Below, one piece after another: positions 30,521 to 64,000 of a DNA stretch of 64,000 nt (its first letter is position 1; each line of letters begins with the position of its first letter). The notes below the pieces were generated by a model. The model did not search any database, was not told the DNA's origin, and saw only the letters and a program-made list of their open reading frames with translations. The translations under genes were made by a program, and so were the position numbers. The DNA lies in assembly GCA_963674825.1 (NCBI GenBank), contig OY771587.1:960001-1024000 (forward strand), read 5' to 3'. Source of the stretch: Candidatus Cloacimonadales bacterium (GTDB lineage Bacteria > Cloacimonadota > Cloacimonadia > Cloacimonadales > JAIOQZ01).

Positions 30521-30555
30521 ATGTCTGATATAAAGTCTCACCCCCCTTGGCAGAA

Positions 30556-30867
30556 GTTACTATCGATCGGGGGGACGGGACAACCCGCGACGCTATAATC
30601 TGTTAGACCATATTGGGCGATAGTAACTTGTTGGCAAGGCCGGTTACTATCGTCCCTTTCAGTATCCCGAAGATGGCACATCGGGTTCACTTACGAGGTT
30701 GTTTAGTTACTTCATATTTCGCGAGATAGTGCGAAAGCCTTTGAGTTTGCGATAGTAACCGAAAATCAGCGATAGTAACCAACCGATAGTAACTCGGTAG
30801 TAACCCGAACCAACAGCCGATAGTAACCAATCGGTAGTAACCGGCGATAGTTCGCACGATAGTAACC
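30556..30867. repeat. Cluster of ~10 CG(A/G)TAGTAAC(C) motifs, putative transposase-binding end sites
   Basis: Reverse copies at 30556 and 30642; forward copies at 30618, 30750, 30770, 30784, 30795, 30818, 30832, 30857; degenerate copy at 30845. Confidence 0.9.
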
Positions 30868-30936
30868 ACACCCAACAAGAAACCCGACTGGTTAAAGTCG
30901 GGTCAAGCAAAAACCGTTTGGAACCCTGTCGGCCGA

Positions 30937-31680
30937 TTAGTAGAGCCTGAACTTAATCACCACCACGCCAACGAGGTGAACGTCCATTGGTGAATCCTCG
31001 TCGAGCACGATGACATTGTAGTCTTTGTTGAATGGGAGAAGGAGTACTTGCTTGTTCTTCGGCACGAGCTGCACCTTTTTCAGCGTGATGCCATCATCGG
31101 TTCGAACAGCGCACACCTTGCCATCGAGACTCATCCAGTCGTAGTTGTAATGGATGACCACGATGTCGCCATGATGGATGTTCGGCTCCATGCTGTGACC
31201 GTTCACTCGAAATACGCAGTAGTTCACCGTATCACTCGAAAGGAACACGCGCGGAATTTCGATGTACGCGAGGCTGTCCTTCTTCACTTTGACGGGTGGC
31301 CCTGCCGCAATCTCCGCTTCCACCGGCAGACTCACCGTTCGACTGAAGTAGTTGTCCGAAGGATTGTAGGGACGACCGTCGATAGTCTTGACCGTGTGCT
31401 TGAGCATTTCAAGCCGCTTCTTCCTGCCGTCCTCGGTCTCGAGTAACGCTTCGGGGAAGGGTTCGATGAACATCGAACCTTGTCCTGTGAGCAACCAGTT
31501 CATGTTCACGGCATGCATTTCGCAAATACGAACCAGCGCATCGATGGATGGTTTGCTCTTCTTCTTGTCAGAGAGCCAGTCCGAGAGGTTTCCGGTTGAT
31601 ACGCCGATTGATGACGCAAAATCCATCTTTTTCATTTCTAACGACTTAACTACAGCCGCCAATCTGTCTTTTACTTCCAT
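30937..31680 (-). CDS. Phage repressor (XRE HTH + S24 peptidase)
   Basis: FASSIGVSTGNLSDWL HTH; EIAAGPP, FRVNGHSMEP, ITLKK autocleavage motifs. Confidence 0.92.
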   Translation of the reverse strand: MEVKDRLAAVVKSLEMKKMDFASSIGVSTGNLSDWLSDKKKSKPSIDALVRICEMHAVNMNWLLTGQGSMFIEPFPEALLETEDGRKKRLEMLKHTVKTIDGRPYNPSDNYFSRTVSLPVEAEIAAGPPVKVKKDSLAYIEIPRVFLSSDTVNYCVFRVNGHSMEPNIHHGDIVVIHYNYDWMSLDGKVCAVRTDDGITLKKVQLVPKNKQVLLLPFNKDYNVIVLDEDSPMDVHLVGVVVIKFRLY

Positions 31681-31708
31681 GCTTTCTCCTGCAATGACTT
31701 ACAGTTTA

Positions 31709-31793
31709 TGCGAGAAATCTGTTGACATTTCGCACGCAATTCTTCATTATTGATGCATGAACTCGAAATTGCACAAACACGAACCGGTGTCAA
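31709..31793. promoter_or_regulatory. Face-to-face promoters and operator between repressor and ner
   Basis: TTGACA 31722-31727 with CATTAT at 17 bp (+); TGTCAA 31788-31793 (-); inverted repeat tgcgagaaat...atttcgca straddling the + strand -35. Confidence 0.6.
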
Positions 31794-31823: not shown

Positions 31824-32027
31824 TTGAAAAAGTACACGCAAAACCAATTCAAGGCTGCCATAAAGCTTAAGGGAATCAGCATTTCCGAGATTTCGGAAAC
31901 CATAGGAATTTCGATGCGAATGCTTGAATATTATATGAAGGGCGAGAAGAATATGCGAAAAGCGGACGCCTTCCTCGAACTTCTCGAACCGGAATTAAGT
32001 CAGATTACAGGAGAAGTTTTAGCATAA
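31824..32027 (+). CDS. Ner/Cro-like HTH protein
   Basis: 67 aa, AAIKLKGISISEISETIGIS; divergent from the repressor, upstream of the transposase. Confidence 0.75.
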   Translation: MKKYTQNQFKAAIKLKGISISEISETIGISMRMLEYYMKGEKNMRKADAFLELLEPELSQITGEVLA

Positions 32028-32055: not shown

Positions 32056-34038
32056 ATGACTTGGCTATCGAGTAATGAATTGTGCGATATGTTGGATGTT
32101 ACTCGGCCTGGTCTGTATAAAATCGCAAAGAAGCAGGCATGGTCGACAAAACAAGTCAAGATGGAGCACGGAGGTCATAGGAAGCTTTATGAGGTGCCAG
32201 ACGATTATCTCGTAGAAAAGACAGGTCAGGTAACTCCGTTCCCTTCTCATGCGGAGTCATTGCCTGTGGCGATTGACGACTCAATCCCTGATTTGCGACC
32301 CAAGATAGATATCCCCCTCGACCTGCAAGAGCAAGCTGAACTACGCGCCAGGCTATGCGAGTTAATCTTGGAAGAACTCGAGCAGTCGGAATCGCGCATG
32401 GAGACGTGGGTGGCTATGACGGCGAGCTACAATGCCGGTGAGTTGCTTCCTGAGTTGTTCAAGCTTGAAGGTAAGCATGGAGAGCGTACGCTTCGACGTT
32501 GGGTGAAGCAGTATGAAGCCGCGAGTAAGAGCAGCGAGGTGTTGATTCGAAGCCGCAAGCTTGGGCAGCCGGAACGAAACCTGACAGAAACTGAGCAGAA
32601 CTTCCTGCTCCACCTGCTACTGACACCGAATCGCGTCTCGATTGGTTCGGCGATACGTAAGCTCAAGCAAATGGAAGCCCTCGACAAACTTGAAACTCCC
32701 GCCAGCAAGCCAACTCTTCGTCGTTGGTGCGAGGAGTGGCGCGACAGCCACAAGCCCGAATGGAACCTGCTCCGCAACGGTAAGAAGTCGCTCAAAGAGA
32801 CTGGCATCCAAAGCATTCTTCGCAGTGACGAGCTCGAGGTCGGCGACGTATGGGTGGCAGACGGTCACAAGCTCGCCTTCGACATCATCGATCCGGCTAC
32901 CGGAAAGCCCAGACGCATGACAATGATCATGTTCTTCGACTGGGCTTCCCGTTACCCGGTAGGAGCGTCGCTGGCGGTCTCGGAAGACTCTCAGCATGTG
33001 TTACTGGCTCTCAGAAACAGCATCATGCATTGGGGCGGCAGACCGAAGTACGTGTATCTCGACAATGGCAAGGCGTTCCGGAGCAAACTGTTCAACAAGC
33101 AGTGGGAGAAGCACGACCTCAGCAAGGAGTTGGAAGGCATCTTCCCGCGACTGGGCATCGGGGTAGCCTTCGCCAAAGCCTACAACGCGCGTGCGAAGGT
33201 GGTTGAGAGGTTTTTCCGAACCTTTCAGGATGATTTCGAGCGATACATGACTACCTTCCGGGGCGGCTCGATTGACGACAAACCTGCAACGCTCAAACGT
33301 AACGAGAAGTGGTTACGGAACATCTTCGCAGGAAAACCGCTGACGATTCCTCAGGCGAAGGCGATGATCGGGCTCTACATCGAGAAGATGTACGGACTGA
33401 CGCCGCATGGTGGCTTGAACAGCGCGAAACCCGCTGAGGTTTTTCACAACGCTATCGTGCCTGACGACCAGAAGATCGATCCTGCGAAGCTCAACTTCCT
33501 CATGCTCGCGGCGGCGAATCGCGTAGTGCATGCGTCCGGCGTCCGCTTCAGCAACGTGCTCTTCTGGCACGACTACCTGATTCAGCACATCGGCGACAGA
33601 GTCACCCTGCGCTACGACCTGATGGACATGCGCTCGGTGCTGGTTTACGACGCGAAAAACCGCTTCATTTGCCAGGCGGAAGCGCGTCGTCACCAGCATC
33701 CATTCATCCATCTCGCCAAGGACAAGCCGCAAGCACAGAAGGCCCTCCAGAAGGAACTGCAGAGCATTCGCAAGCTCGAGAAGAACGCGCAGGAGTCATC
33801 CGAAGCCATCCTGCTCAAGGTCAACGAAGCCGTCGGCCAGATACAGCAACCGATGACCGAAGAGATTGGCGAGATATTCGCAAACCAGCCGCTGATCGAG
33901 CAGCCGAAGCCGGAATTTACCATCGACGACATCGTGAAGGCGTCGGCTGAGGGTGAGAACATCCAGCTTGATACAAAGCCTCGCGAGGATGAAGAGCTCA
34001 ACTTTGAAGAACTGATGAAAGCAATAGGAATAGGATAG
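32056..34038 (+). CDS. Mu-like DDE transposase (MuA family)
   Basis: N-terminal HTH; WVADGH, YLDNGKAF, AKVVERFF catalytic triad; C-terminal VTLRYDLMDM (Mu-transposase C-type). Confidence 0.92.
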   Translation: MTWLSSNELCDMLDVTRPGLYKIAKKQAWSTKQVKMEHGGHRKLYEVPDDYLVEKTGQVTPFPSHAESLPVAIDDSIPDLRPKIDIPLDLQEQAELRARLCELILEELEQSESRMETWVAMTASYNAGELLPELFKLEGKHGERTLRRWVKQYEAASKSSEVLIRSRKLGQPERNLTETEQNFLLHLLLTPNRVSIGSAIRKLKQMEALDKLETPASKPTLRRWCEEWRDSHKPEWNLLRNGKKSLKETGIQSILRSDELEVGDVWVADGHKLAFDIIDPATGKPRRMTMIMFFDWASRYPVGASLAVSEDSQHVLLALRNSIMHWGGRPKYVYLDNGKAFRSKLFNKQWEKHDLSKELEGIFPRLGIGVAFAKAYNARAKVVERFFRTFQDDFERYMTTFRGGSIDDKPATLKRNEKWLRNIFAGKPLTIPQAKAMIGLYIEKMYGLTPHGGLNSAKPAEVFHNAIVPDDQKIDPAKLNFLMLAAANRVVHASGVRFSNVLFWHDYLIQHIGDRVTLRYDLMDMRSVLVYDAKNRFICQAEARRHQHPFIHLAKDKPQAQKALQKELQSIRKLEKNAQESSEAILLKVNEAVGQIQQPMTEEIGEIFANQPLIEQPKPEFTIDDIVKASAEGENIQLDTKPREDEELNFEELMKAIGIG

Positions 34039-34050: not shown

Positions 34051-34785
34051 ATGAGAGAGAGAATTTTAGCGGAAACCGAAAACGTGCGCGGGGCGAAGAA
34101 ATGCATCGCCTACCTGCAGGACCGCCCGAAGACCGAGATGGTCGGGCTGGGGCTGCTCTATGGTGCGCCGGGACTGGGCAAGACCCGCTTCGCCAAGCGA
34201 CTCGCCTACACCAACGACTACATATACTTGAGGCTGGAAGCCTCGATGACGGCGAAGGTGTTCGCGCGCGAGCTGCTTCGCCTACTGCACTACCGGTACG
34301 ACGTCTCGGACGAAGGCTATCATGGCTCGACGAGTACGCTGTTTCGTCGTTGCATCGACCTGTTGCAATCGCACCCGGAAGCTGTGGTTATCATCGATGA
34401 AATCGACTACGCCTTCAACCAGCCGATGCTGCTCGGTTCGATTCGAGACATCGTGGACGAGACGCTGGCCATTGTGGTGCTGGTCGGCATGAAGGACGCG
34501 AAAGAGAAGCTGCTCAAAGCCAACGCGCACTACTTCGACCGGTGCAACTATTTCTACGAATTCAAAAAGTTGTCACGAGAGGATGTCGATCTTGTCTGTA
34601 AAGCCGTCTCCGAGGTGAAGATGCGCTCCGACTTGGTGACGTACATTCACAAGACAACCCACGGTAACTTCCGTCGGATCATCAAAATATTTGAGGTTGT
34701 CGAGAAGGTAGCCGCCGCCAAGCAGCTTACTGAAGTATCGCTTAACGATCTGCAAGAAACGCAGGAGCTGAAGAATGCGTCCTAA
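34051..34785 (+). CDS. MuB-like AAA ATPase
   Basis: YGAPGLGKT Walker A, VIIDEID Walker B, directly after the transposase. Confidence 0.9.
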   Translation: MRERILAETENVRGAKKCIAYLQDRPKTEMVGLGLLYGAPGLGKTRFAKRLAYTNDYIYLRLEASMTAKVFARELLRLLHYRYDVSDEGYHGSTSTLFRRCIDLLQSHPEAVVIIDEIDYAFNQPMLLGSIRDIVDETLAIVVLVGMKDAKEKLLKANAHYFDRCNYFYEFKKLSREDVDLVCKAVSEVKMRSDLVTYIHKTTHGNFRRIIKIFEVVEKVAAAKQLTEVSLNDLQETQELKNAS

Positions 34786-35062
34786 CATTCCTGCCAGGCG
34801 CGTCATCGACCGCTTCGTCGAGTATCATAAGCGGCCTTTCACCGTGAAGGACGTCGCCAACGACACAGGACTTCACCCCAAGACTGTGCGCAATCTGCTG
34901 CCGCAACTGGTTCAAGCAGGCAGAATTCGTGTACTGATGCGGGAGCAAGCCGGAAACATCTACGGCAAACCTGTCGCCATCGGCAAGCAGAGAAGCGCAA
35001 TTAGGCTTTATTGGACAGTATTGATGAAAAAACAGCTCGGGCTATTTCCATCGTATTATTGA
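34775..35062 (+). pseudogene. Phage HTH protein, probably 3'-truncated
   Basis: FTVKDVANDTGLHPKTVRNLL; GC-rich sequence ends near 34995 and reads into AT-rich cargo. Confidence 0.55.
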
Positions 35063-35812
35063 ATTCTTCGATGTTTGATCCATTTGTACGTTAATAAATT
35101 GGTCAATTTTATCAGGGTCAGGATTTTTACGATCAGGTTCTACTTGCTCATACCAGGTCTCCCAATTAGCAGGATCAAGAAAGGTAATCAGCCCAACCCC
35201 AAATTCATTGCAAAGGTCAATCAATTCATCAACCTGCTGTGTATTATCCTCTAATTGCACAACAAGGTAACTATAATGAGAGAAGAGAGAATGAGATGCC
35301 GTTTCAAAAACTCCGGTTTTATCTTTATGATAGCCTTTGGGTTTAACTTCAAAAGTTATTACTTCTATTGAGCGACCAATTTGATATTGATAGGATTTGA
35401 GGGCTACAATAGTAATATCTGGTCGCGACCATTTCCCACCGGTTCGTTTCCTACCTTGGTTAGCAGTAATCTCAATTACAAAATTCTTATCTAAGCGTTT
35501 GTCTTTCACCCAGTCCTGTGCAATCACTTTCTTAATATCCGGATACAGGTCTTTCTCAAGCTTTGCTTCGTGTTGGTCACTTTCTATGATTTCTACATCA
35601 GAATTTAAAGGTTCAGTGTCAACGAGTTTGGTAGCGCCTCCCTTGCCCCGTCCCATTGTTACTTTACCTTCGTCAATCAATTCATTTCTTGCTTCAAAGA
35701 ATGAATCAGGTGATATTTTAAGGTTTCTCTGCAGTGTAATATTTCCTATAATACCATCCGTTGACAGTCTCAGCTCATTCAGAATTCGCTGTTTGATATC
35801 ATTGATTTCCAT
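35042..35812 (-). CDS. Cargo: wHTH + PD-(D/E)XK nuclease-like protein
   Basis: WSRPDITIV...FEVK...SHYSYLV...FGVGLITF; AT-rich and antisense to phage genes. Confidence 0.7.
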   Translation of the reverse strand: MEINDIKQRILNELRLSTDGIIGNITLQRNLKISPDSFFEARNELIDEGKVTMGRGKGGATKLVDTEPLNSDVEIIESDQHEAKLEKDLYPDIKKVIAQDWVKDKRLDKNFVIEITANQGRKRTGGKWSRPDITIVALKSYQYQIGRSIEVITFEVKPKGYHKDKTGVFETASHSLFSHYSYLVVQLEDNTQQVDELIDLCNEFGVGLITFLDPANWETWYEQVEPDRKNPDPDKIDQFINVQMDQTSKNSIIRWK

Positions 35813-35901
35813 AATCCCTTTCTCCTCTTCTATGTTTCAAGATGGATATTCATCGAACAATAATAATGTTGTCAAATCATTTAGGGTATGTACGCAATTT
35901 T

Positions 35902-36291
35902 ATGAATAGCTACCGACCGGATGAAATCGCGGGCTGCTTGAACGTCAACATCTCGACGGTCTACCGGTTGATCCGCGACTTCGACGACCCGCTTCCCGCG
36001 TTCCGCCTCAAGGCCAACGGACAGTTGCGCGTACACGGGCAGTCCCTCAAACAGTACGCCGACAATCCGCAGGACACCGCGCTGCAGTCGCTCGTATCGC
36101 TCCTCAAGCAGTACCAGAAGGAGCTCGAGCCGAGCAAGGACTTGATCGACTACATGAAGCGGTTCTTGGACTGGCAGATCGATTTCTACCACGCAAGGGG
36201 CGATGAAGCGACCGCGAAAGCCATTCAGCGGGAAATCCTCGGTGAGGACGGGCTCGTGGCCTATTTCATGAACCATATGACAGGAACGTAG
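35902..36291 (+). CDS. HTH (excisionase-like) protein, possibly an in-frame fusion with a small-terminase-like C-terminus
   Basis: YRPDEIAGCLNVNISTVYRLI HTH followed by an unrelated helical segment; lies directly before the terminase remnant. Confidence 0.55.
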   Translation: MNSYRPDEIAGCLNVNISTVYRLIRDFDDPLPAFRLKANGQLRVHGQSLKQYADNPQDTALQSLVSLLKQYQKELEPSKDLIDYMKRFLDWQIDFYHARGDEATAKAIQREILGEDGLVAYFMNHMTGT

Positions 36292-36303
36292 ATATGGGAT
36301 TAA

Positions 36304-37608
36304 CTATATCTCAAGCAATCTTTTGTATTTCTCGCGGTATTTATTGGGAATCCGATCAAAATCATAAAGCTGTAATGCATCCTTGAGCCGTTGCTTACAG
36401 TTTAGATAACTTTTAACCCGACTACTGATTAGATTATCTTCCTCAAGCAGGATAAAGATGAAACTTATTTCTGCAGGCGTAAACTGCTTTATCATTATCT
36501 CATAGTATATGACCGCAGCGAAAGAAACACCATACATATTTCCTATATAACATAGCATTACAGTTAGAACAAACTCCCTCTTTGCTGAATCAGGGATAGG
36601 AGTATTGCTTGTCAATTCCATAAGTCTTTGCGCAAATGGAGGTTCGTTATAAAAATTTTGGAATGCATGATGTACATTGTAGAGGTTTTTGCAAGCACTT
36701 GATATTATACTATGCTGCTCTGATGTATGCAATACTGATAACAGATTTAATTTCTCAAAAAATATTCTTGATGCTCTTTGTTTTTCTTCTTTTCCTTGAG
36801 CTTGATATTCAGAGTGCTGATTTACAAGCATCGAAATCACTTCATCAGTAAATTGCGTCTTCAGCCCCATACATATATTAAGAGAATTCATCCTAGTTGT
36901 TTCGTTCTCTTCAGAGTTACAATAAACACCATGAAGAGCTCTGAGAAGCATCTCTCTTTGAGCCGTGTATGTATTTTTGAATCGATCAATCCAGATAGAG
37001 ATCTGTTCAGAATCAAATCTGTCATTGCGAATTGCATCATAGAATGATTTTGCATCTATCCCTATAATATTAATCTCTTTTGAAAGCGCGTGCTTAGCAA
37101 TTCTATTCAGAAATGAAATGAACTCTCTATCGTTGAGCTGCCCCGTATTGGGGTGTGCTGCCGAGTAATTATTTCTAACTTCTCTGGATTGATTTAGGAA
37201 AAAGTACCCCTCTTCACTAATTAAATTCAACTCAAGACAAAGGTGCAGAAGATCATTGTCCCGCATTTCTAAAAGAGTTTTCTGATTAATATCCTTTTGG
37301 GTTATATCCTTTATAATATTGAGTCCAAAATTCTCCAATCTATCTCTTAGATAACGGATACCCGCATTCCAAGCATAGTTAATAGCTCCATCAAATAGCC
37401 CAACTGACACTGCAATACACATTTTAGCTATTAGCTCATTCCTTTGTCCTTCGGGTATTAATGCAAGTTCCCGAGGTAAACCTTGCCATGCATATGAGAT
37501 TTCCTCTCTGCTTGCTACATAATCTCTTAATACACTCAAATTACTAAGCACATGGTCAATATGTGGTAAAGTAACCTCTGTAATTGCTGGCAATGTAATA
37601 TCGCACAT
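36304..37608 (-). CDS. Cargo: hypothetical protein with HEPN-like Rx6H motif
   Basis: AINYAWN...REVRNNYSAAHP; AT-rich, antisense. Confidence 0.6.
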   Translation of the reverse strand: MCDITLPAITEVTLPHIDHVLSNLSVLRDYVASREEISYAWQGLPRELALIPEGQRNELIAKMCIAVSVGLFDGAINYAWNAGIRYLRDRLENFGLNIIKDITQKDINQKTLLEMRDNDLLHLCLELNLISEEGYFFLNQSREVRNNYSAAHPNTGQLNDREFISFLNRIAKHALSKEINIIGIDAKSFYDAIRNDRFDSEQISIWIDRFKNTYTAQREMLLRALHGVYCNSEENETTRMNSLNICMGLKTQFTDEVISMLVNQHSEYQAQGKEEKQRASRIFFEKLNLLSVLHTSEQHSIISSACKNLYNVHHAFQNFYNEPPFAQRLMELTSNTPIPDSAKREFVLTVMLCYIGNMYGVSFAAVIYYEIMIKQFTPAEISFIFILLEEDNLISSRVKSYLNCKQRLKDALQLYDFDRIPNKYREKYKRLLEI

Positions 37609-37656
37609 TTTTCCTCCAATATTTACAAATCAGAAAAGCTTGTCTCTTGTCAAGCA

Positions 37657-37854
37657 AAACGCGTGGACACAGTCGTCGAGACCGGCAAGGTAGTCTTCCC
37701 GGACGGGCAGGATACGCCGACCCTCGTCAGTCAGTTTCTCACCTATCCGCAGGGCTATGTGGACGGCCCGGACGCCCTCGCGGGCTGCCTCGAACGCTTC
37801 CCCGAGTACGACACCGGCCGCAACAGAACCAGAGTTCGGAGCTTCCGGTTTTGA
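37657..37854 (+). pseudogene. C-terminal remnant of large terminase
   Basis: VETGKVVFP...LVSQFLTYPQGYVDGPDALAG resembles the TerL nuclease C-terminus; upstream part replaced by cargo. Confidence 0.65.
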
Positions 37855-38729
37855 CCTATTTCGACCGTGTGATGCTCGAGTATTACCGTGTCCTCAACAA
37901 TGCCTGGCAGCGCGAGGTGCGCGAGTCGGCGACGCAGGCCATCAGGGCGTTGTCCGACATCCCTCGTCACGAGAGGCTCAATCGCACCCATATCGACGAC
38001 GTTCTCGCCGTGATCGACTCCAACCTCGGCGAGGATTTTTCGTCCGCTGTGCGCGCTGAAACGAAGGCGTACATTCAGCGGTGCATGCTGCTGGGCCTGA
38101 ACGACGCGCAGAAGCAGGTTCCGCACAACACCCGCATCGGCTTGTACGGCGCACGAGAGAAGCGGCTCGAGACCGTCATCACCCGCCAGAACCTGTTCTG
38201 GATCGGCGAACGCTACGGCACGGACATCTCGCAGAAGTTCCGTTCCACACTTACCGAAGCCGTAGCCTCCGGCTACACGAAGAAGATGCTGCAAGAGCAA
38301 CTCGCGGAGCAGTTCAAGGACTTGGGCGCGAAGTCGCAGCACTATTGGCAGGGGTTGGCGGAGCACACCGCGCTCCGAATCCGCGAGTTCGGCAGGCTGG
38401 AGGGGTATCGCAAGGCTGGCGCGAAGTACTACCGACTAATGGTTGTGCTCGATGATCGCACGTCGGATATCTGCCGCGCCCTCGCCGCGCAGAACAAGGT
38501 GTATCCGCTTTCCGACGCGCTCGAGGTGATGGAAGACTTGCTGGCCATCGATCCCAAGCAGCATAGCCTCGAGTCGGCGCGAGAACGCACGAAGGAGCTT
38601 GCGCCGTGGGTCAGCGAAGACATGATAGAACGAAACGCCAGCGGCAAGCCCACGGGCGTCTCAGGAAGCCATACGCCCTTCCCACCATTCCACTGGAAGT
38701 GCCGGACCGGGACGGAGGTGGTTGTTTAG
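37851..38729 (+). CDS. Phage minor head protein (Mu gpF / SPP1 gp7 family)
   Basis: VLDDRTSDICRAL ... PPFHWKCRT. Confidence 0.85.
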   Translation: MTYFDRVMLEYYRVLNNAWQREVRESATQAIRALSDIPRHERLNRTHIDDVLAVIDSNLGEDFSSAVRAETKAYIQRCMLLGLNDAQKQVPHNTRIGLYGAREKRLETVITRQNLFWIGERYGTDISQKFRSTLTEAVASGYTKKMLQEQLAEQFKDLGAKSQHYWQGLAEHTALRIREFGRLEGYRKAGAKYYRLMVVLDDRTSDICRALAAQNKVYPLSDALEVMEDLLAIDPKQHSLESARERTKELAPWVSEDMIERNASGKPTGVSGSHTPFPPFHWKCRTGTEVVV

Positions 38730-39093: not shown

Positions 39094-39322
39094 CGTAGTC
39101 TCCTTTGTGCTCCTAAGTATGTCTCTACGATAAAGATCGCGCACAGGAAGTCAAGTCCTTAAGACGGCATAAATGTTATTTTTTGTGTGATTTAGCGGGT
39201 TGTAAAGGGATCATATAGACGCGGTGTATCAAGAAGTTTCGTACAGAGGCAAAAGTGTGGCTTCAACAAAAAAGCCATTTATCGGCAAGATGAATTTGAT
39301 TCTATTTCATGACAGTCACCTT

Positions 39323-54433: not shown

Positions 54434-54860
54434 ATGACAGAACGTAAAACCGTGCGCAAAGGCGAGTTGCGCAACGTCGAGGTGGAGCTCGTATCGCTGC
54501 TCTTCGACGACATGAACCCCGCCAACCAGAAGGGCTTCGTTGTCAAAGCCGCGAGTGGCAAGGCGTACAAGGTGCGCGGCTCGTCGGTCAAGTTCAAGAG
54601 CGAGACGAAGGGGCGTCAGGGGCGGCTGTTCGTGACGCTGATGGAACCGGACGTGAAGGACGCGCAGGGCGATTTCTACACCGCCGAGGAGATCCAGAAG
54701 GCGTGCGACCACTTCAGTAAGCACGGCATGGTCGGGCGCAACGACATCAACCACAACAACCACCCGATCGACGACTTTTCCGTCGCCGAGAACTACATCC
54801 TCAAAACCGAGGACAGGACGCACTTTCCCGACACACGCATCGGAGCTTGGGTGCAGGTGC
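54434..54860 (+). pseudogene. XkdF-like prohead protease, truncated by cargo
   Basis: ELVSLLF..PAN, LMEPDVKDAQGDFYTAEEIQKAC, DINH, AENYI, GAWVQV; cut before the usual G-x-S motif. Confidence 0.72.
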
Positions 54861-55834
54861 TATTTTCGAATTTCAACGGTGATACTTGAATCAATTGCAT
54901 TTGCAAGGTCTGTAATCTGTGATACTTTGTCTTTAGGAACATTTCTACCAATATGCACTTTTCGGATCCTAATGGTATATGGTATTGAGCCATTCGGAAC
55001 ATGAATTGGATATTTTATATACGAATCATCGAAACGTTCAAGTTGATTCGGGTTGTAGATCAATAATCTTGTTTCTTTTTCCCATGAATAGCGATCCCTT
55101 TTGTAGAAAAATGAAAAACGAAACAATCCATTTATCATTACTTCCTTCATACAATATTGACGCAACCGAAAATTGATCTCACTTATGAAATCGAAATCAT
55201 ATCCTGAATCGTAAGAGACGCGATTAAAACCAATTCGTTCATTTTGTGATGGACCGAAGGAGGAATTTGTTAATACTTGTATCTCAAAACAAACTCCATC
55301 ATCAGAATCAGCATATTCAAGCCAAAAACGATCTTCCAGGTTCCTTGTGAAACACAGAATATGGCCTAAGTTTCGAACTCTATCTGATTGTGGAGATTTG
55401 TTTGGCCTGCCAATATCACAATAAATAGGATTTTCGTTGTGTCTTCGTATTTCTGTCATGTTTTTTTTCGTGCTGCACATTTTTCTGCAGTATTCCTCTG
55501 GCATTAAGTATCCTAAGAGCCCCACTCGTTTGTAAAATTCTGTGAATTCCGCATAATCATTGAGTGATTGAGATTCTAAATTATACATCCTGAAGGCTTT
55601 TTCCTGCAATGCTCCGATAGCATAGTCGCTTTTCATGAAACGATATAGGATATCACCATCACACACTTGAGGAGAACGATCTTTCAAAACCCTCGCAATT
55701 GGGTTTTTATCTTCTTGTATCCATATAAGCTGATGGACATTGATGTCTGCATTGCTGTCAACACCAAATTTTTCAAGGGAGTGTGCCTTTAAAGTGTCAT
55801 TTATAATCCTTATGATCTTTGCTTTATCACTCAT
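54860..55834 (-). CDS. Cargo: DUF2971 family protein
   Basis: LYRFMK, ILCFT, FWLEYADSDDGVCFEI, VSY, YKRDRYSWEKETRL. Confidence 0.72.
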   Translation of the reverse strand: MSDKAKIIRIINDTLKAHSLEKFGVDSNADINVHQLIWIQEDKNPIARVLKDRSPQVCDGDILYRFMKSDYAIGALQEKAFRMYNLESQSLNDYAEFTEFYKRVGLLGYLMPEEYCRKMCSTKKNMTEIRRHNENPIYCDIGRPNKSPQSDRVRNLGHILCFTRNLEDRFWLEYADSDDGVCFEIQVLTNSSFGPSQNERIGFNRVSYDSGYDFDFISEINFRLRQYCMKEVMINGLFRFSFFYKRDRYSWEKETRLLIYNPNQLERFDDSYIKYPIHVPNGSIPYTIRIRKVHIGRNVPKDKVSQITDLANAIDSSITVEIRK

Positions 55835-55899
55835 GGTTACCTCCATTTTCAGATTTAGTAACTTGTTGCAAACATGTCAAAAGAAATTTCCACGAGTCC

Positions 55900-56129
55900 A
55901 TTCATCCCTTCTGGCAAAGGAGGGAAAAGAGGCAAAATGGATACTCAAACAGGCGATCAAGGCCCTCGCAGAGCCCATCGTGGACGCCGTTATCAGCGCG
56001 CTGGAGGCTCTGGCCAAGCGTAGCGAGAACACTATCGACGACGCCTTCGTGGCCAAGTTCCGCGAGTTCAAGGAAGCCATCGTCGGCTTCATCCTCGCGC
56101 ACTGCGACAACATCGTCAAACGCGCGTAG
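55900..56129 (+). pseudogene. 3' fragment of a phage protein
   Basis: GC-rich frame ...KWILKQAIKALAEPIVDAVISALEALAKRSENTIDDAFV... with no credible start. Confidence 0.5.
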
Positions 56130-56138
56130 GGAGCGGCC

Positions 56139-56684
56139 ATGCCCGTAGAAAAACCAACCCTACCCACCGGCATGAGCTCTGGCGACCTCGCGAACCTGCT
56201 CAACCAGATCGGCGGCGTGGACGTGTACAACGTCCACGTCGGGGTCGGCGAGCTGACGGAGAGTGAAATCACGGCGATGTTCGCCAGTCAGCCGACGATG
56301 GAGACCGAGATTTCAACAAACTTCGAGGAGCTTGGCGAACTGGCCGAGAAGCCGTTCAAGGTCGAGTCTAAGACCGAGAAGCTCAAGACCCGGCACTACC
56401 AGATCGAGGGTAAGCGCACCAACGTCGTCACCGTGACCATCGTCGGCATCAACGAGGACAAGAAGAACTGGCTCGAGGAGCAGAGTGCAGGCATGGCGCA
56501 GATCACGCTGGTCGCCGTCTCGAAGGACAAGACGCAGGCCGTGCTTATCAACGGCTGTCGCTGGACGGTCGACTGGAGCGGTGAAGCGGACGGTCTCTAC
56601 ACCCAAGAGGTGGCGACCGAGTTCACCGGCAAGACCAGCGGCAAGGTTAGCTTCTTCAACAAGATACCCATAACCGCAACGTAG
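56139..56684 (+). CDS. Probable major tail tube protein
   Basis: 181 aa, beta-rich and Thr/Glu-rich, upstream of the chaperone/tape-measure region. Confidence 0.55.
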   Translation: MPVEKPTLPTGMSSGDLANLLNQIGGVDVYNVHVGVGELTESEITAMFASQPTMETEISTNFEELGELAEKPFKVESKTEKLKTRHYQIEGKRTNVVTVTIVGINEDKKNWLEEQSAGMAQITLVAVSKDKTQAVLINGCRWTVDWSGEADGLYTQEVATEFTGKTSGKVSFFNKIPITAT

Positions 56685-56689
56685 GAGAC

Positions 56690-56893
56690 ATGATGAACTG
56701 CACATGCGACCCTGAAGTTCGCAAAAAGATATCGGACGTGCACAAGGAAGTCTATGGCAACGGCGATTCGAGCCGTTCGATTGTGACCCGCATCGCGCGT
56801 CTGGAAACGAACATCAAGCTGCTCACGAGCCTGACCGTCAGCCAGTTCTTTCTGCTGGTGGGCGTGGCCGTGAAGACCTTTCTGGGGGCGTGA
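56690..56893 (+). CDS. Small membrane phage protein (holin-like)
   Basis: VYGNG...RIARLE plus C-terminal TM. Confidence 0.5.
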   Translation: MMNCTCDPEVRKKISDVHKEVYGNGDSSRSIVTRIARLETNIKLLTSLTVSQFFLLVGVAVKTFLGA

Positions 56894-57216
56894 TGGACAT
56901 CAGTTACGCCACCTTTCGCAAGGTGCTCTCAACGCTGCTTCGCAACGATCAACTCCGCGACGGACTGAGCGACCTGCTCGCCGGTAACGAGGTTGAGTTG
57001 AGCGAGGTCGGCTTCCTGGACTTGCTCGAAGAGTCGCACGTCGACATCGACATCCTGCGCATCCTCACCGGACGCGAACCGGAGGCCATCGGGCCGGAAC
57101 AGGCGGCGGAGGCGTTCACGGCTTTTTTCTCGGCTGTCAGAGGCAGTTGGCGCGCGTTTCAGCCCTTGCTCGAAGGTTTGGGCTACACGGCGCAGGTCGA
57201 AGCGGGGACAGCATAG
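56890..57216 (+). CDS. Probable tail assembly chaperone G
   Basis: Position after the tail tube; contains a T-TTT-TTC slippery site at 57123-57129. Confidence 0.6.
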   Translation: MMDISYATFRKVLSTLLRNDQLRDGLSDLLAGNEVELSEVGFLDLLEESHVDIDILRILTGREPEAIGPEQAAEAFTAFFSAVRGSWRAFQPLLEGLGYTAQVEAGTA

Positions 57217-57341
57217 AACGTCTCGAGATGGCCCTGCGCGGGGCGGGGTTCACGCAAGCCGATTTTTGCGAGCTGAGCCTGCCCGAACTCTACCTCCGCT
57301 ACTGCCTCGCCATCGAAAACACAAGGAAACACAATGGATAG
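57123..57341 (+). CDS. -1 frameshift extension (G-T chaperone)
   Basis: The -1 frame is open from the slippery site to TAG 57341: ...DSIERLEMALRGAGF...LSLPELYLRYCLA. Confidence 0.55.
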   Translation, partial: FFLGCQRQLARVSALARRFGLHGAGRSGDSIERLEMALRGAGFTQADFCELSLPELYLRYCLAIENTRKHNG

Positions 57342-58095
57342 TCTGATTACATGGATCGGCGGCAAGAAGCTGCTGCGCAAGAAAATCGCCAGCCTCGTGC
57401 CCGACGACAACACCGGCTACGTGGAGCCGTTCGGCGGGGCCGGTTGGGTGCTGTTTTACCGCGACCGCTGGGCCCGTCTCGAGGTGTACAACGACCTCGA
57501 CTCACGGCTCACGAACCTGTTCCTGCAGGTGAAGTTCCACCCCGACGCGCTGGTGAAAGAACTGGAGCTGATGCCTGCCTCACGCGCCCTGTTCGACGAA
57601 CTGGTCGAGCAGCCCGGCCTCACTGAGCTACAACGGGCCGCGCGATTCCTCTACGTCATCACCCGCTCGTTCGGCGGCAAGGGCGAGCACTTCGGCAGGG
57701 CTTCCACGTCCGGTCCGAGCAGCATGCAGCGCAAGCTGGAGCGTGTCCACGCGCTGAGCAAGCGACTCGACAAGGTGACCATCGAACACCTGCCCTACGA
57801 CGAGCTGATCGCCTTCTACGACCGGCCCGGCGTGTTCTTCTACTGCGATCCGCCCTACGTCCACGGCACGACCTACGCAAACGCGCGTCACTTCGACCAC
57901 GAGCGGCTTCGGGACGTGCTGAAGGGCGTGAAAGGACGCTGGCTGCTCTCCTACGACGACTGCCCCGAGGTGCGCGAGTTGTACGCCGGACACACCATCA
58001 TTCCGGTCAGTCGCGTGAAGGGGATCAACCGGATGCAGGGCGAGAGCATGTTCAAGGAGGTTATCATCGCAAACTACGAGGTGCCAGATGAATAG
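57334..58095 (+). CDS. DNA adenine methyltransferase (Dam/D12 class)
   Basis: WIGGK, YVEPFGGAG, YNDLD, YCDPPY. Confidence 0.92.
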   Translation: MDSLITWIGGKKLLRKKIASLVPDDNTGYVEPFGGAGWVLFYRDRWARLEVYNDLDSRLTNLFLQVKFHPDALVKELELMPASRALFDELVEQPGLTELQRAARFLYVITRSFGGKGEHFGRASTSGPSSMQRKLERVHALSKRLDKVTIEHLPYDELIAFYDRPGVFFYCDPPYVHGTTYANARHFDHERLRDVLKGVKGRWLLSYDDCPEVRELYAGHTIIPVSRVKGINRMQGESMFKEVIIANYEVPDE

Positions 58096-58864
58096 CGTCA
58101 TCGGTTGGGTGGGCGGCAAGCGACTACTGCGCAAGGCGATCCTGCCGCTCATCCCGAAGCACGACACGTACTGCGAACCCTTTGCCGGAGCGGCGTGGAT
58201 ACTCTTCGCCAAGTCGCGCGACCACAAGGAATGGCAGGCAACCAAGGGCCAGAAATACCGCGAAATCCTCAACGACATCAACGGCGAGTTGGTGAATTTC
58301 TGGCGGCATGTGAAGCACCATCCGGCCGCGCTGAAAGCGGAACTCGACCGGTTTCTCGCCTCGCGGGAGCTGTTTCACGAGTTTCTCGATAGCGCGTCGC
58401 GCACCGACCTCGAACGCGCCGTGCGGTTCTACTATGTGCTGGCGTGCTCCTACGGCAGCCTTTCGAGCACCTTCGCTGTTCGTGGTCACCTGACGATGCT
58501 GCCGATCCGGCGCGTGGGCAAGCTCGAAGCCGCCAGCGAACGCCTGCGCGACGTCATCATCGAGCGACTCGACTACGAGGCTGTCATCCGCAAGTACGAC
58601 CGCCCTGCGACCTTCTTCTACATCGACCCGCCGTACTACGAGCGTGAGATGCTCTACGAACGCGACCGGGTAGCGGCGTTCGACCAGCACGAGGAGCTTG
58701 CGATGCTGCTGCGCGAGGTGCAGGGCAAGTGGTTCCTGAGCTACAACGACCATCCCGTCATCCGCGAGCTGTACAAGGGGTTCACCATCGATGTGGTGAA
58801 CACGCGATACTCGGTGTCGGGGACGAACAGGGCAAGCTCAGAGATATTGGTTAGAAATTACTAA
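58088..58864 (+). CDS. Second DNA adenine methyltransferase (Dam/D12 class)
   Basis: WVGGK, YCEPFAGAA, NDING, YIDPPY. Confidence 0.92.
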   Translation: MNSVIGWVGGKRLLRKAILPLIPKHDTYCEPFAGAAWILFAKSRDHKEWQATKGQKYREILNDINGELVNFWRHVKHHPAALKAELDRFLASRELFHEFLDSASRTDLERAVRFYYVLACSYGSLSSTFAVRGHLTMLPIRRVGKLEAASERLRDVIIERLDYEAVIRKYDRPATFFYIDPPYYEREMLYERDRVAAFDQHEELAMLLREVQGKWFLSYNDHPVIRELYKGFTIDVVNTRYSVSGTNRASSEILVRNY

Positions 58865-58876
58865 AGTATGACTGAA

Positions 58877-59215
58877 TCATTTCTTTGCAGTTTTCCTGTC
58901 CAAAATAGCTTGGAGAACTTTGTGATCCATATAATGAGCCAGCCAATGAGGTTCCTCAAATGGTTTCTTCAGGGACTCCAACCTATCAATCTCATCTTGA
59001 AGTTCCTCAATACTGTACTCGAGGAACCTCGAGAACTTGTCATCCAGTTTTTTGTATGTGAAGTCCTCAAGGCTTTCGTATCCCATGACCTCAAGAAGAA
59101 ACGCAGTATTTGGACGTGCATCTTGGTCAACAGGTACCGATTTAAGGGGTTTGTTGAGCTCCAGACCCAGAAGTTTTCGGACAGTCTCGATACTTGGATA
59201 ATCTGCAGTTGTCAT
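58877..59215 (-). CDS. Cargo: small hypothetical protein
   Basis: AAGGAGG RBS and own TTGACA; antisense between dam2 and the tape measure gene. Confidence 0.65.
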   Translation of the reverse strand: MTTADYPSIETVRKLLGLELNKPLKSVPVDQDARPNTAFLLEVMGYESLEDFTYKKLDDKFSRFLEYSIEELQDEIDRLESLKKPFEEPHWLAHYMDHKVLQAILDRKTAKK

Positions 59216-59271
59216 GATTCCTCCTTGTTTGATGTGCTGATGATGAAAGATTGAATGAGGATGTCAAGTAA

Positions 59272-59760
59272 ATGGCAACATTGAAGTTCCGCATCATCAT
59301 CGAGAAGGGCGACGCGAATGCGGCTATCACCGACGTCGAGGCGCAGGTTGACGACCTGAAGCAGAAGGCGGAGGAACCGAAGTCGCTGAAGCTCGACGCG
59401 CAGGCCGCATTGGGCGTTATCCGCGACGTGATGCTGAACCTGTCGTCCCTGAAGTCGGTCATCGATGGCGTCGTGGGTAAGGCGAACGACCTGCTCAACG
59501 CTTCGCTCAAGCAGCGGCAAGCCGTGACCCTGACCAACATCGCGTTCGGCGAGCAATCGGAATCGATGCAGGAGTTTGCGTCACGCATGCAGGCGGTGAC
59601 CAACCACGGCGACGAGGAGCTGCTGCCACTCATGGCGAAGATGCGGCAGACGTTCAAAATGACGACCGAGGAGGTGCAGGCCATCACGCCGTACATCCTC
59701 GATTTCGCGGACGCTAACGCATCCACCGACGTCGAGGCGAAACAAAATAAACGATTATAG
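59272..59760 (+). pseudogene. Tape measure protein N-terminal fragment
   Basis: MATLKFRIII...FASRMQAVTNHGDEELL...; GC-rich until ~59740, then stops at 162 aa. Confidence 0.7.
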
Positions 59761-59840
59761 AAATGAAATATTAAACTTGACATGGATCATTTGGTTTGAT
59801 ATGGATTTAATAATTAATCATGACAACATATGGAGGAACC

Positions 59841-60722
59841 ATGAAATATTTTCTTCTCGCTATCGTGTTAATGGCGTACAGCCTGCTTGTAGCCGAAACC
59901 TGGATATACGAAAAGACCGTCGTCGAGCTTCCCATGGGCGAAGCGGAAAATCAGTTGAGCCTTGTACTCGTTCCAGATGGCTACGAAGAAATGGATTCAG
60001 GTCCAACAAGCTTCACCATTGATGAGGACGAAAATATTTACATACTGACTCGACGCAAAAACATCATCAAGAAGTTTGACCGTAATGGCAACTTCATCTG
60101 CGCATCGAAATACGAAAAGGGTGCAGGAGATGTCATCCGATTTCTTGGATATCATAATGGAATGGTTTACACCATGAGTTGGGGGTCTGATCGTCCATAT
60201 GTCCGAAGATATAACAAAGACCTCGAATACATTGGTTGTTCTTCTTTACATAAAGAAAGAGGTCCAACTGTTGGTCTGAGCTTCATTGAAAGCAATGCGG
60301 ATAAGTTTGGTTTACTCATCTACGATGGTCCACAAGCGATACAAGCTGGCGAACTTGTGTTGCAAAATAACCAATATCATCTTAAGAAAATGAAACTGTT
60401 CGATTTCACCTATAAGCCAGTTGACCTGAAAAAGATGTGGCATTCCGATATTGGATATCGATTTATAAATTATGACAGGGATAACTACTTGTATTTCGAG
60501 AACTTGGTTGCTCCATTGACAGCGACAGAACTCGGCATTGTAACGGAAAAAGGTGACTTTATCTCCACGAATGTCGTTTTCGATTCAAATTTAGTTCATG
60601 ACGTTCATTTCTACGATAGAGTTTATCCTTTTGTTTCAAAATCTGGTGTTGCTTATAGCTTGGTTGTTTCCAAGGACAAAATTGAATATGTCCGTTGGTA
60701 TAAAACAGGAGTAGAGAAATGA
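59841..60722 (+). CDS. Cargo: secreted beta-propeller-like protein
   Basis: Signal peptide; GPTSFTIDEDENIYIL...IKKFDRNGNFI (NHL-like). Confidence 0.65.
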   Translation: MKYFLLAIVLMAYSLLVAETWIYEKTVVELPMGEAENQLSLVLVPDGYEEMDSGPTSFTIDEDENIYILTRRKNIIKKFDRNGNFICASKYEKGAGDVIRFLGYHNGMVYTMSWGSDRPYVRRYNKDLEYIGCSSLHKERGPTVGLSFIESNADKFGLLIYDGPQAIQAGELVLQNNQYHLKKMKLFDFTYKPVDLKKMWHSDIGYRFINYDRDNYLYFENLVAPLTATELGIVTEKGDFISTNVVFDSNLVHDVHFYDRVYPFVSKSGVAYSLVVSKDKIEYVRWYKTGVEK

Positions 60723-62542
60723 GAATATCCATATTCACAGTTTTCATTATTGGAGCTACTAGTTTATTATCCGTAAACATGAACCTTGCTGTCGACTATC
60801 TCAATATGGAATGGATGGTGAATGGCCCCAACGTCTGGAACAACTACACCGATACAGGAGATCCGCATCAGGGATACACTGAAGCTCATCCTTGCGACTG
60901 GGTAGATGGTATCGGTACAACCATTACCGGCATGCCCTACCACTATGGAGGCAAGGATTCATTTGCACAATGGGATAATGATTACGTAAACGGAAACAAC
61001 GGCCCCGGCGCTCATACAATTCATTATCAGATAAACTCACCCACTTCACGGGAATGGGCGGCCGGTATTGACTGTTCCGGTTTCGTTGGAAGGTGTTGGG
61101 GGATATCCGAGGTTTCAATAGGAGGTTTTGGATGTGGACATATTCGTGATAATTACCCCAACATTGCACCCCATCTGGTTCAACCCGGTGATGCATTTGT
61201 AGCTAGCACTCATGCCAGACTTTGCTATGGAAGATACGAAGATGATCCAACAAATCAATGGGTAGAGGTAATTGAAGCAATGTCTGATGGAGTAAATAAA
61301 GTGGAGAAGAATATCTATAGAATCGAAGATATGATAGCTAGTGGCTTTGGCTGTTACTCCTGCTCGGATTCCACCAACATCTCTGCCGGCTCCGTCTCTG
61401 GAACCTGGACGCTGGAAGATGGACCATACTTGATCGGTGGCGACATCCAAGTCGATACGACAGCAACGTTGACCATCGAAGCCGGCGTCAACGTGATTTT
61501 CACCGGGCACTACAAGTTCACCATATATGGTAAATTGCTCGCACAGGGTACCGAGGACATGAATATCTTCTTCACCGCAGAAAACACGATCGCCGGCTGG
61601 GGCGGCCTGAGGTTCATCAACAACAACACCAATGAATTCGACCAGTCCCGACTGACACACTGCAAGATCGAATACGGAAACGCACAGGGGAACTGGCCTG
61701 ACAATGTGGGAGGGGGAATTTTCTGCCAGTATTCCAATACGATCATCGACACCTGTGTCGTGACCAACAATAGCGCCCTTGCAGGTGGTGGTATTTACGT
61801 GAATCATTCCAACCCGGAGATCTATTACACGCTGATATCGGAGAATCACGCACAAGAGTTCGGCGGAGGAATCGCAGCGTACGACAACTGCATGTTCTTC
61901 CTCATGAACAACACCATTGTCGATAATACCGTGGATGTGTCAGGCAATGTAGGCGGTGGCATTTTCTGCGATATGTCCTGCTGGGCGTACATTGTGAATA
62001 CGATTGTATGGGGCAATACGTCCTATCAGGTATATCTGTTTTACGATAGAGACTATACGATCAATTATTGCAACATAGAGGATGCCATATATCCAGGTGA
62101 CGGAAATTTCTCGAGCGATCCACTGTTCAACGGTTCGGATCCCACTCACTATGAGCTGACGAGCAATTCGCCCTGCATCGACACCGGACACCCTAATTAT
62201 AACGATCCGGACGGTACAAGAAGTGATGTCGGCGCATTTCCGTATTTCCAGTTACCGGAGCCGCCGGAAGTGACGATCAGCATACAGAACAATCAGGTGA
62301 GTCTCGCCTGCGGAAGCGTGTCTCGAACCAGTTATATAGTCTATTCTTCCGACGATCCGGAAGGGACTTTTACAGAGGATGAGACAGGATCGTTCGACGG
62401 AAATGTTTGGACTGCGCCCTTGACGGATGATTCGAGATTCTACTATGTCACGACCGATACAGGAAGTCGCCGTGAGAATTCGGAAGTGACACCATTGAGT
62501 GAACTGATCAACAACCACAAGCGTTTGCATATACAGCGCTGA
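60719..62542 (+). CDS. Cargo: secreted NlpC/P60-like domain + right-handed beta-helix protein
   Basis: GMPYHYGG, GIDCSGFV, QPGDAF..H; then GGGI repeats, SPCIDTG, RSDVGAF. Confidence 0.72.
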   Translation: MRISIFTVFIIGATSLLSVNMNLAVDYLNMEWMVNGPNVWNNYTDTGDPHQGYTEAHPCDWVDGIGTTITGMPYHYGGKDSFAQWDNDYVNGNNGPGAHTIHYQINSPTSREWAAGIDCSGFVGRCWGISEVSIGGFGCGHIRDNYPNIAPHLVQPGDAFVASTHARLCYGRYEDDPTNQWVEVIEAMSDGVNKVEKNIYRIEDMIASGFGCYSCSDSTNISAGSVSGTWTLEDGPYLIGGDIQVDTTATLTIEAGVNVIFTGHYKFTIYGKLLAQGTEDMNIFFTAENTIAGWGGLRFINNNTNEFDQSRLTHCKIEYGNAQGNWPDNVGGGIFCQYSNTIIDTCVVTNNSALAGGGIYVNHSNPEIYYTLISENHAQEFGGGIAAYDNCMFFLMNNTIVDNTVDVSGNVGGGIFCDMSCWAYIVNTIVWGNTSYQVYLFYDRDYTINYCNIEDAIYPGDGNFSSDPLFNGSDPTHYELTSNSPCIDTGHPNYNDPDGTRSDVGAFPYFQLPEPPEVTISIQNNQVSLACGSVSRTSYIVYSSDDPEGTFTEDETGSFDGNVWTAPLTDDSRFYYVTTDTGSRRENSEVTPLSELINNHKRLHIQR

Positions 62543-62559
62543 TTCACTACTCACTTTAG

Positions 62560-62943
62560 CGCATCCTCTCCATCTACATCATCTCGCTGCCCGGTGGCAC
62601 GCTACGACTGGTCAACAAGGACGACGCCTCGAATGCGGTCACCACAATCGATTCCGCCGACGTCATCGAGTTCAAGCGCAAGCGGCTCAACCGTTCGCGG
62701 CCCGACACGTCCGTCCTGGACTGTCTCGTCGGCGACACGACCAACCTGAAGGCCCTCATCGCCGACCACTACGAAACCCTTTTCTGCCAGACGTGGAGCC
62801 TCGAAGCGACCGTTGACAACCTCGCCAAATACGACTTTGCCTTGTTCGACAAGCTGCTCGTCGAGGGCGTGCAGTACCGCATCACCGAGCTGCAGCGCGA
62901 CCCGAAGGCGGACGAGTATGTGCTCAAGGCGTGGGAGGTCTGA
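62560..62943 (+). pseudogene. 3' fragment of a phage tail-region gene
   Basis: Hand-translated GC-rich frame IYIISLPGGTLRLVNKD...EYVLKAWEV* with no start (in-frame TAG at 62557). Confidence 0.6.
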
Positions 62944-63392
62944 TGCTGTGCTACGACGGCTTTCGCATCATCTCCATCGCGGGCGGCGCGTACTCCGGGT
63001 TCGTCGTCGAGAGCGGCGTCATCGACTACCAGCCGCAACGCAAGTATCGCGTCGAGAAGCAGTGCGCCTTCGATCCGACCATCCTCATCCGGCGCGAGCC
63101 GTACAACGAAGATTCCATCGAGTGCGAGGCCTACTTGCATGCGACGCAGTATGACGATCTGTACGCCATCCTGAGCGGTGCAGACCTGCTCTTCATCGAG
63201 TTCGACACCGGCTCGGGGACGCTGCAGTTCCCGGTAGTGATCGACAAGCTGCCCAAGCTCGAAGACGATGCACGCTCCCATCGCAGCCGCATCAAATTCA
63301 CCCTCACCAGCATCTACAAGCAGTTGTCGCCCATCGACTTCGACAGCGTGTTCGGCTACGGCAACGGCTGGGGCGACTGCTGGGGATTTTAG
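62943..63392 (+). CDS. Phage tail-region protein
   Basis: TGATG coupling; ends FGYGNGWGDCWGF. Confidence 0.6.
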   Translation: MLCYDGFRIISIAGGAYSGFVVESGVIDYQPQRKYRVEKQCAFDPTILIRREPYNEDSIECEAYLHATQYDDLYAILSGADLLFIEFDTGSGTLQFPVVIDKLPKLEDDARSHRSRIKFTLTSIYKQLSPIDFDSVFGYGNGWGDCWGF

Positions 63393-63400
63393 GAGGACGC

Positions 63401-64000
63401 ATGCCCGAAACCACCAACTTCAGCCTCTATCAGCCGGTCGCCGGGGAGTCAGGATGGGCCGCCGCGCTCAACGGTAACTTCGACACCATCGACGCGCTTC
63501 TGTACTCGCACCAGACCAGCATCGACGGTCACACGGGAACCGGCAGCAACAAGCACAACGCAGAGCAGATCCGCACCTCGGACGGCTCGGATGTGCAGTC
63601 CGCGCTGGCGGCCAAAGCGAGCCTGCATCACTCGCATCAGGCGGACGATGTCATCCTTCCCGATAACCTCGACATTGGCCATCACATTGCGAATATCAAC
63701 GACGATATCCAAAGTCTTGAAACAACGAAGGCTGCATTGCGGCACACCCACCAATCCGACGACATTCTCCTGCCTGACGGCCTCGAGCTTGGGCAGCATA
63801 TCGACAGCATCGACGACGACATAGAAGCACTCCAGACCGGCAAGGCGGACGCCACCCACGAGCACGCTGAATATGCCCTGCAAACCGCTCTGGACACGGT
63901 TGAGAACACTCTCGATCTGTTGTTGCCAGACCTTGCATCCGTGACGCTGAGCGTCGATGTCGTCAATCGCAGCGGCGGCATTCGCATTCTGTTCCACACT
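63401..64000 (+). CDS. Tail fibre-like protein (runs off window)
   Basis: AGGAGG RBS; MPETTNFSLYQP...LNGNFDTID; repeats KASLHHSHQADD / KAALRHTHQSDD / KADATHEH. Confidence 0.65.
   Translation, partial: MPETTNFSLYQPVAGESGWAAALNGNFDTIDALLYSHQTSIDGHTGTGSNKHNAEQIRTSDGSDVQSALAAKASLHHSHQADDVILPDNLDIGHHIANINDDIQSLETTKAALRHTHQSDDILLPDGLELGQHIDSIDDDIEALQTGKADATHEHAEYALQTALDTVENTLDLLLPDLASVTLSVDVVNRSGGIRILFHT

Follow-up and report, generated by a model that had tools for sequence, protein, structure and literature searches.

A Mu-like prophage derivative of a Cloacimonadales bacterium with virion genes replaced in place by whole-gene cargo

Transposable prophages, as described for Mu, D3112 and the prophages of Leptospira in PMC8705779, carry a DDE transposase and an ATPase near the left end, and have a short target duplication and varied insertion sites. 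The length quoted there is 36-39 kb, ends other than TG are possible, packaging is by headful with flanking host DNA, and mini-Mu is mentioned as well. The element described here, termed A, is like these prophages in its transposase and ATPase genes, duplication and varied sites, and is near to them in length. Its ends are TA...CA as compared to the TG-CA and TA-TA reported in that source; its repressor has an S24 peptidase domain, its head has an XkdF-type protease-capsid fusion, and it is without terminase, capsid and tape measure, which have been overwritten in place.

The prophage pool of E. coli O157 Sakai, as described in PMC2669165, likewise comprises many recombining defective sister prophages in one genome, and its head-defective prophages are packaged, probably by complementation. 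The defective members in that account are mostly lambdoid, the sole Mu-like prophage being intact, and have been damaged by frameshifts, deletions and IS insertions, whereas in the present case a transposable phage has undergone whole-gene swaps that are matched in size. Elements domesticated by deletion or divergence, as described in PMC13626063, have also lost core virion genes and kept genes of benefit to the host; these elements shrink and lose their borders, whereas A has retained exact borders and its full length, each loss being paired with a gain of cargo. Among the titles and abstracts searched, a set without most subscription papers, none describes transposable prophages in which virion genes have been replaced at matched size.

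Predicted helper dependence for particles, as well as defence cargo, is further shared with phage satellites (P4, PICI) and engineered mini-Mu. Satellites of the P4/PICI type carry an integrase and a conserved small gene set, and are packaged by a helper. In contrast, A has no integrase match, and no conserved reduced gene set or hijack gene was found, the gene set differing in every sister; it is a natural element of nearly full helper length.

Boundaries and gene content of element A

The window, i.e. the whole 64,000-nt stretch of DNA analysed, holds all of the 34,930-bp element except its last 1.46 kb (Table 1). The preliminary description had taken a TG at 30522 as the left end; the position of the TCTGA duplication and the comparison with the sister prophage B rule this out, the TG being outside the element and the true end being TA at 30529. 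A right end in CA and a 5-bp target duplication, both of which it had proposed to look for, were found. The insertion site is empty in the congeneric genomes G034 and G040, in which the flanking host genes are ~430 and ~640 bp apart, respectively, and elements of different genomes have different target duplications; insertion sites thus differ between genomes. Just left of it, at 26240-30448 of the window, two tandem GLUG/FlgD-tail secreted proteins with 3' ends 96% identical are encoded.

With a DDE transposase and an adjoining ATPase, defined ends with a 5-bp duplication and varied sites, and without the complete virion gene set that is present as open frames in B, element A is a derivative of a transposable (Mu-like) prophage and not a complete member. 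The transposase family is present in 78 of 201 genomes of the order, and relatives of the portal occur mostly in Cloacimonadales or Cloacimonadota genomes.

Table 1. Features of element A and its left flank, in window coordinates
Feature	Position	Strand	Remarks
Target-site duplication TCTGA	30524..30528	.	second copy directly after the right end at 65458
Element A	30529..64000, on to 65458	+	TA...CA ends, TTGGCA/TGCCAA end repeats
Left end region	30529..30936	+	first 400 bp 97.5% identical to sister B
HTH + peptidase S24 repressor	30937..31680	-	97% identical to B, open frame
ner-like HTH gene	31824..32027	+	named by position
MuA-type DDE transposase	32056..34038	+	PF09299; D270, D337, E385, aligned to TnsB
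MuB-type AAA ATPase	34051..34785	+	open frame
Swap 1	34969..35908	-	940 bp, 256-aa putative nuclease (PD...EVK motif); replaces 1516 bp
Fused HTH gene/small terminase stub	35909..36271	+	253-bp deletion at 7-bp microhomology
Swap 2	36272..37659	-	1388 bp, 434-aa putative HEPN-like protein; replaces 1362 bp of large terminase
Large-terminase C-terminal stub, intact Mu F-like minor head gene	37660..38729	+	
Main cargo slot	39161..51502	-	12,342 bp, type 4 BREX brxP-brxC-pglZ-brxL and upstream 584-aa orphan
M15 endolysin, three small genes, intact portal, protease stub	51503..54858	+	
Swap 3	54859..55934	-	1076 bp, 328-aa DUF2971/PDC-S31-like gene (weak matches); replaces 1334 bp
Putative major tail, holin and chaperone genes, two Dam-type methyltransferases	55935..58864	+	
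Small intergenic moron	58846..59285	-	440 bp as compared to 140 bp in B; 112-aa ORF
Tape-measure stub	59272..59728	+	152 codons; left join as in G022d and G034_C3b
Swap 4	59729..62576	+	2848 bp, secreted 300-aa + 607-aa pair; replaces 3366 bp of tape measure/tail gene
Tail-gene stub, intact distal tail-region genes	62577..64000	+	on to the right end

The transposition module had been considered intact, which holds for the repressor, the transposase with its catalytic triad and the ATPase, all in open frames, but not for ner; a 1-base loss has shortened its product to 67 aa, as compared to 78 aa in all three sisters shown.

Sister prophage B (34,236 bp, duplication TCCAT) resides in the same single-contig genome as A, with a backbone 85-92% identical, and its only lesion is a 204-bp deletion in the second Dam gene. 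As compared to B, four stretches of the A backbone (early, terminase, capsid and tail) have been overwritten in place by whole AT-rich genes, the other changes being the small moron, the 253-bp deletion and the base lost from ner. Open frames in B encode a 514-aa large terminase, a 578-aa protease-capsid fusion, an 882-aa tape measure and a 478-aa tail-region gene, of which A retains the last ~63 codons, 146 residues, 152 residues and residues 358-478, respectively. The GC content is 36-45% in the inserts and 52-61% in the backbone. The fragmentary state of these four genes and the AT-rich genes at the breaks, both noticed in the preliminary description, were thereby confirmed. The DNA lost at Swap 1 comprised gemA-like and DUF3164 genes and parts of two HTH genes, and that lost at Swap 3 most of the protease-capsid fusion. 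The major tail, holin and chaperone genes are named from their position, without a family match. A promoter and terminator scan of 34900-39400 returned 8 and 5 sites, respectively, as compared to 6.4 and 4.6 expected.

Sister elements and the census of swaps

Only B is complete among the 17 close stretches, some of which are cut by contig ends or extraction limits, and B is a candidate intact helper for A. Alignment of homologous elements, as had been suggested, revealed a backbone that is kept and cargo that differs. The sisters break different genes, MuA and MuB included; no single stretch of G022 is complete, and jointly its stretches hold every gene. Among IMG/VR loci of sufficient length, a set biased towards intact phages, capsid, major tail and tape measure are kept in 39 of 40, and a metagenome scan with the tape-measure stub returned no relative. 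Where both ends were located, the elements other than A and B measure 36,108, 31,398, 30,960, 29,139, 22,876 and 18,840 bp, with ~34.9 kb for G022d, so that the largest is ~36 kb; a search for the ends of G014a, G017a, G053a, G053b and G039a did not locate them.

G028a (L014/L015 on G028:C3; 30,960 bp) has a TG left end, a perfect 5-bp duplication and intact MuA and MuB, together with a fragment of one virion gene only; a repressor match is absent, and Avs4 is among its 27 kb of cargo. The 36,108-bp unit at G000:C1:3775092-3811199 has a repressor-ner-MuA-MuB stretch 98.5% identical to that of B, left and right ends and a tail-gene stub, and carries IS/intron-like remnants and ~29 kb of host-type genes, including those for giant secreted proteins (3184 and 4569 aa). 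A spacer of 8 bp separates its left end from a preceding right end, and the identical 8 letters follow its own right end. Solo right ends, or new elements at or inside an older right end, were observed at G000:C1:348309, 3770844 and 3775083, and at G022 L010 and G028 L014; Mu-like elements usually show target immunity. L037/L038 (G034:C4:496462-519337; 22,876 bp) has both ends and a target duplication and is almost without phage genes, its cargo comprising a TOTE primase-helicase and host-type transport genes. Two more left-end-like stretches and a degenerate right end surround host-type genes at G000:C1 ~1120840-1131189.

The census covered 30 element-containing stretches, of which the 15 close ones, along with A, were aligned to B at the DNA level. 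After homologous gaps and the main slot were set aside and shared alleles counted once, 18 swaps were obtained, the events being hand-curated and not all independent (two have a common right join). Inserted length correlates with deleted length (Spearman 0.65, p=0.0012), and 13 of the 18 swaps are within 1.5-fold in size (permutation p=0.006); addition of four large events gives 16 of 22 and a rho of 0.81, and the median ratio of inserted to deleted length is 0.87. Eight pure deletions, one of them that of B, and four small intergenic insertions lie outside the size test. When 800 kb of the G034 chromosome was compared with G000 as a host control, 58 gaps of at least 900 bp were recorded; 48 with partial homology were set aside, and the 10 non-homologous ones comprise 6 pure indels and 4 swaps, 1 of which is size-matched. 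Size-matched events thus make up 13 of 20 in the elements (the 18 swaps and two ~1.5-kb deletions) as compared to 1 of 10 in this small control (Fisher p=0.007).

Insert ends lie at most 150 bp from a complete ORF in 43 of 60 cases (three rows hand-corrected), as compared to 25% for random host cuts over the whole genome, and cuts on the phage side fall inside genes in 31 of 36, matching chance (87%). Joins with known parents display short microhomologies. The pairing of a loss with a whole-gene gain of similar length is a general pattern in the close relatives.

Several broken alleles are shared among genomes. The tape-measure join of A recurs in G022d and G034_C3b, i.e. in three species in all; G022h (without tape measure) and G034_C3a have in common a radical-SAM insert, the two copies being 96-97% identical; the Swap 1 insert is 99% identical in the G022a and G022b elements; and an insert of ~72 bp breaks terL in both G022 and G034. 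The median identity of host proteins between G000 and G034 is 80%. The tape-measure stub of G022d equals the intact gene of the co-resident G022b to codon 146, within ~20 bp of the break, and a function for truncated virion stubs (e.g. as assembly poisons), considered in view of their low dN/dS, is therefore unneeded. G053b and G039a have a common portal break with ~8 kb of cargo, the three long genes of which display a dS of 0.7-0.8 and a dN/dS of ~0.2; their assignment to different sites derives from different neighbouring genes only.

Cargo genes

The description of the cargo as defence stands for the BREX set, which is a complete type 4 gene set with NF033445 and TIGR02688 above cut-off. 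All four genes given for this type in PMC12914056 (brxP, brxC, pglZ and brxL) are present. Type 4 systems are further characterised by DNA phosphorothioation or phage exclusion. The orphan gene upstream of brxP (49625-51379) matches only unnamed clusters in Atlas, and its N-terminal part has a 28% match to an IS-like element of G022. The same slot holds 10,497 bp of other cargo in the intact B, and BREX-like genes in L082, an IMG/VR locus with an intact backbone. The slot that holds BREX in A is thus a cargo hotspot of the usual kind, found in intact phages also, and does not support domestication.

The PD-(D/E)XK and HEPN assignments derive from motifs. A PD...(D/E)xK motif is visible in the 256-aa protein, which has no family match in Pfam, PADLOC and NCBIfam. 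HEPN RNases are characterised by an Rx4-6H motif within a HEPN fold; for the 434-aa protein, R-N-x5-H (R145, N146, H152) is invariant in all 84 aligned sequences, with a DUF4145 match in 1 of the 84 only; the protein itself has no family match in the same three collections, and Atlas and PDB-profile searches returned only unnamed clusters or helical-repeat noise.

The secreted pair at 59820-62542, which does not bear out the defence label, has a 72%-identical host paralogue at G000:C1:1420141-1422347 (L005). Its 607-aa protein has a DCSG motif, which we take to resemble that of NlpC/P60 amidases, and a beta-helix, without a family match. Between A and G022d, the middle of the pair is 49-73% identical and the promoter and ends are 84-96% identical. 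The two genes may possibly form an effector-immunity pair.

In the sisters, 25 of the 67 cargo proteins scanned (of 119 called) match PADLOC at E<=1e-8, the matches including restriction types I-III, Avs4, Ppl, TIR, SEFIR and several PDC families; Sir2-STAND matches are also among the defence matches of the element cargo. The other sister cargo comprises secreted FlgD-tail proteins, signalling proteins, a radical SAM enzyme and IS transposases. Cargo ORFs run against the direction of phage transcription in 61 of 93 cases.

Origin of the swaps and its meaning

The locus likely belongs to a recombining pool of defective Mu-like prophages, which we infer to be packaged by an intact sister. A is a defective Mu-like prophage with virion genes swapped in place; on balance, its own transposase probably copies it, and the capsid in which it travels is probably that of B. 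Foreign DNA would enter by illegitimate, microhomology-type recombination, with removal of phage DNA at the same spot, and headful packaging from the left end would then discard genomes much longer than the parent. Oversize genomes of Mu lose the right end in packaging; a like loss is proposed to keep the swaps about size-neutral and trimmed to whole genes. Homologous recombination between co-resident copies would move broken alleles to fresh backbones, and is proposed to explain the stubs without decay. As a point against this reading, the alleles could also have passed between species through generalised transduction or by transformation. The presence of ComEC is uninformative, 10 of 14 controls having it too. 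The headful limit explains an upper bound only, and shorter elements as well as the 8 pure deletions also occur. The several sisters without MuA, MuB or an end, and the frameshifted ner of A, are further points against it. Two near-identical virion-defective elements at different sites were not found among the stretches compared, so transposition after breakage is a step that we infer.

Less probable, and the main rival, is the reading that A is an immobile relic and a recombination sink, in which host selection keeps the cargo and removes lethal genes, and the size match arises from the recombination mechanism. The swap would then be homology-anchored with one illegitimate end, and alleles would move by transduction or transformation and not by end-driven packaging. 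A homology-anchored process of this type is described in PMC2884548, and the microhomologies at the joins, the back-jump joins of G034_C3a and a second right join for one left join fit it, while nothing on size matching by this mechanism is contained in the available part of PMC3240628, and the size match is absent from host DNA. Many sisters are without transposase or ends, and the allele with a broken portal that G053b and G039a share is an old one (dS 0.70), the dN/dS of its cargo being ~0.2; as against this, no measured element exceeds ~36 kb, and A has ends nearly identical to those of B and an intact transposase. A plain decaying relic also fits poorly, as evident from the length that is kept and the broken alleles common to several species. 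An assembly artefact that joined A-like with B-like copies, for which the occurrence of two 88%-identical copies in one genome could be cited, is so improbable as to be nearly negligible. Of the six cargo joins checked in 36101-56100, five (36271, 37660, 39160, 51503 and 54858) are bridged by Logan short-read contigs from one sample, possibly the source sample, which rules out a chimera at these joins; the first contig extends back to about 34458, and join 55935 has no more than 29 letters on one side. Depth across the cargo is flat (37-44), and identical joins occur in other genomes.

A stable domesticated lineage, the first option of the preliminary description, in which the phage would have settled into life as a defence transposon and its gene set would be both reduced and fixed, is improbable. 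It would agree with the intact transposase, ATPase and ends, with the site being empty in G034 and G040, and with G028a and the C-E unit, which resemble pure transposons. However, the set of breaks of A is found in no other of the 21 compared stretches, sisters break MuA and MuB too, and virion genes that would be useless are undecayed. The dN/dS of A against its sisters is mostly 0.02-0.2 (highest 0.27), the transposase, virion genes and stubs being alike. In A, the transposition genes have private N/S counts of 31/103, the intact virion genes of 31/100 and the stubs of 5/21 (0.30, 0.31 and 0.24), and those of the same classes in B are 26/82, 38/101 and 15/45. The comparison of transposase with structural genes, which had been proposed as a check, therefore gives an equal purifying signal and no special preservation of the transposase. 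This argues against a long-domesticated transposon, and A is accordingly made up of parts that were functional until recently, in the manner illustrated by the G022d stub.

Accounts of prophage decay usually present it as shrinkage. In the present elements, loss and gain are paired, gene for gene, at near-constant length and in many independent events. The dated whole-gene inserts offer a rare handle on the trimming of phage morons to exact genes, and the swapped slots are a source of candidate defence genes. If the capsid sets the length, the 'dead' prophages of this order would be working vehicles for defence islands, with restriction types I-III, BREX-4, Avs4, Ppl, TIR, SEFIR and Sir2-STAND matches among those concerned. 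We propose tentatively, and with somewhat more doubt than confidence, that these elements are natural full-length Mu-type cargo shuttles, which trade virion genes for same-sized cassettes of defence and secreted-protein genes, remain at the size of the capsid, exchange parts and broken alleles, and spread between species in the capsid of a sister. If true, phage satellites would have in them a counterpart that relies on transposition and is without a fixed gene set, the length of the element being a record of continued packaging.
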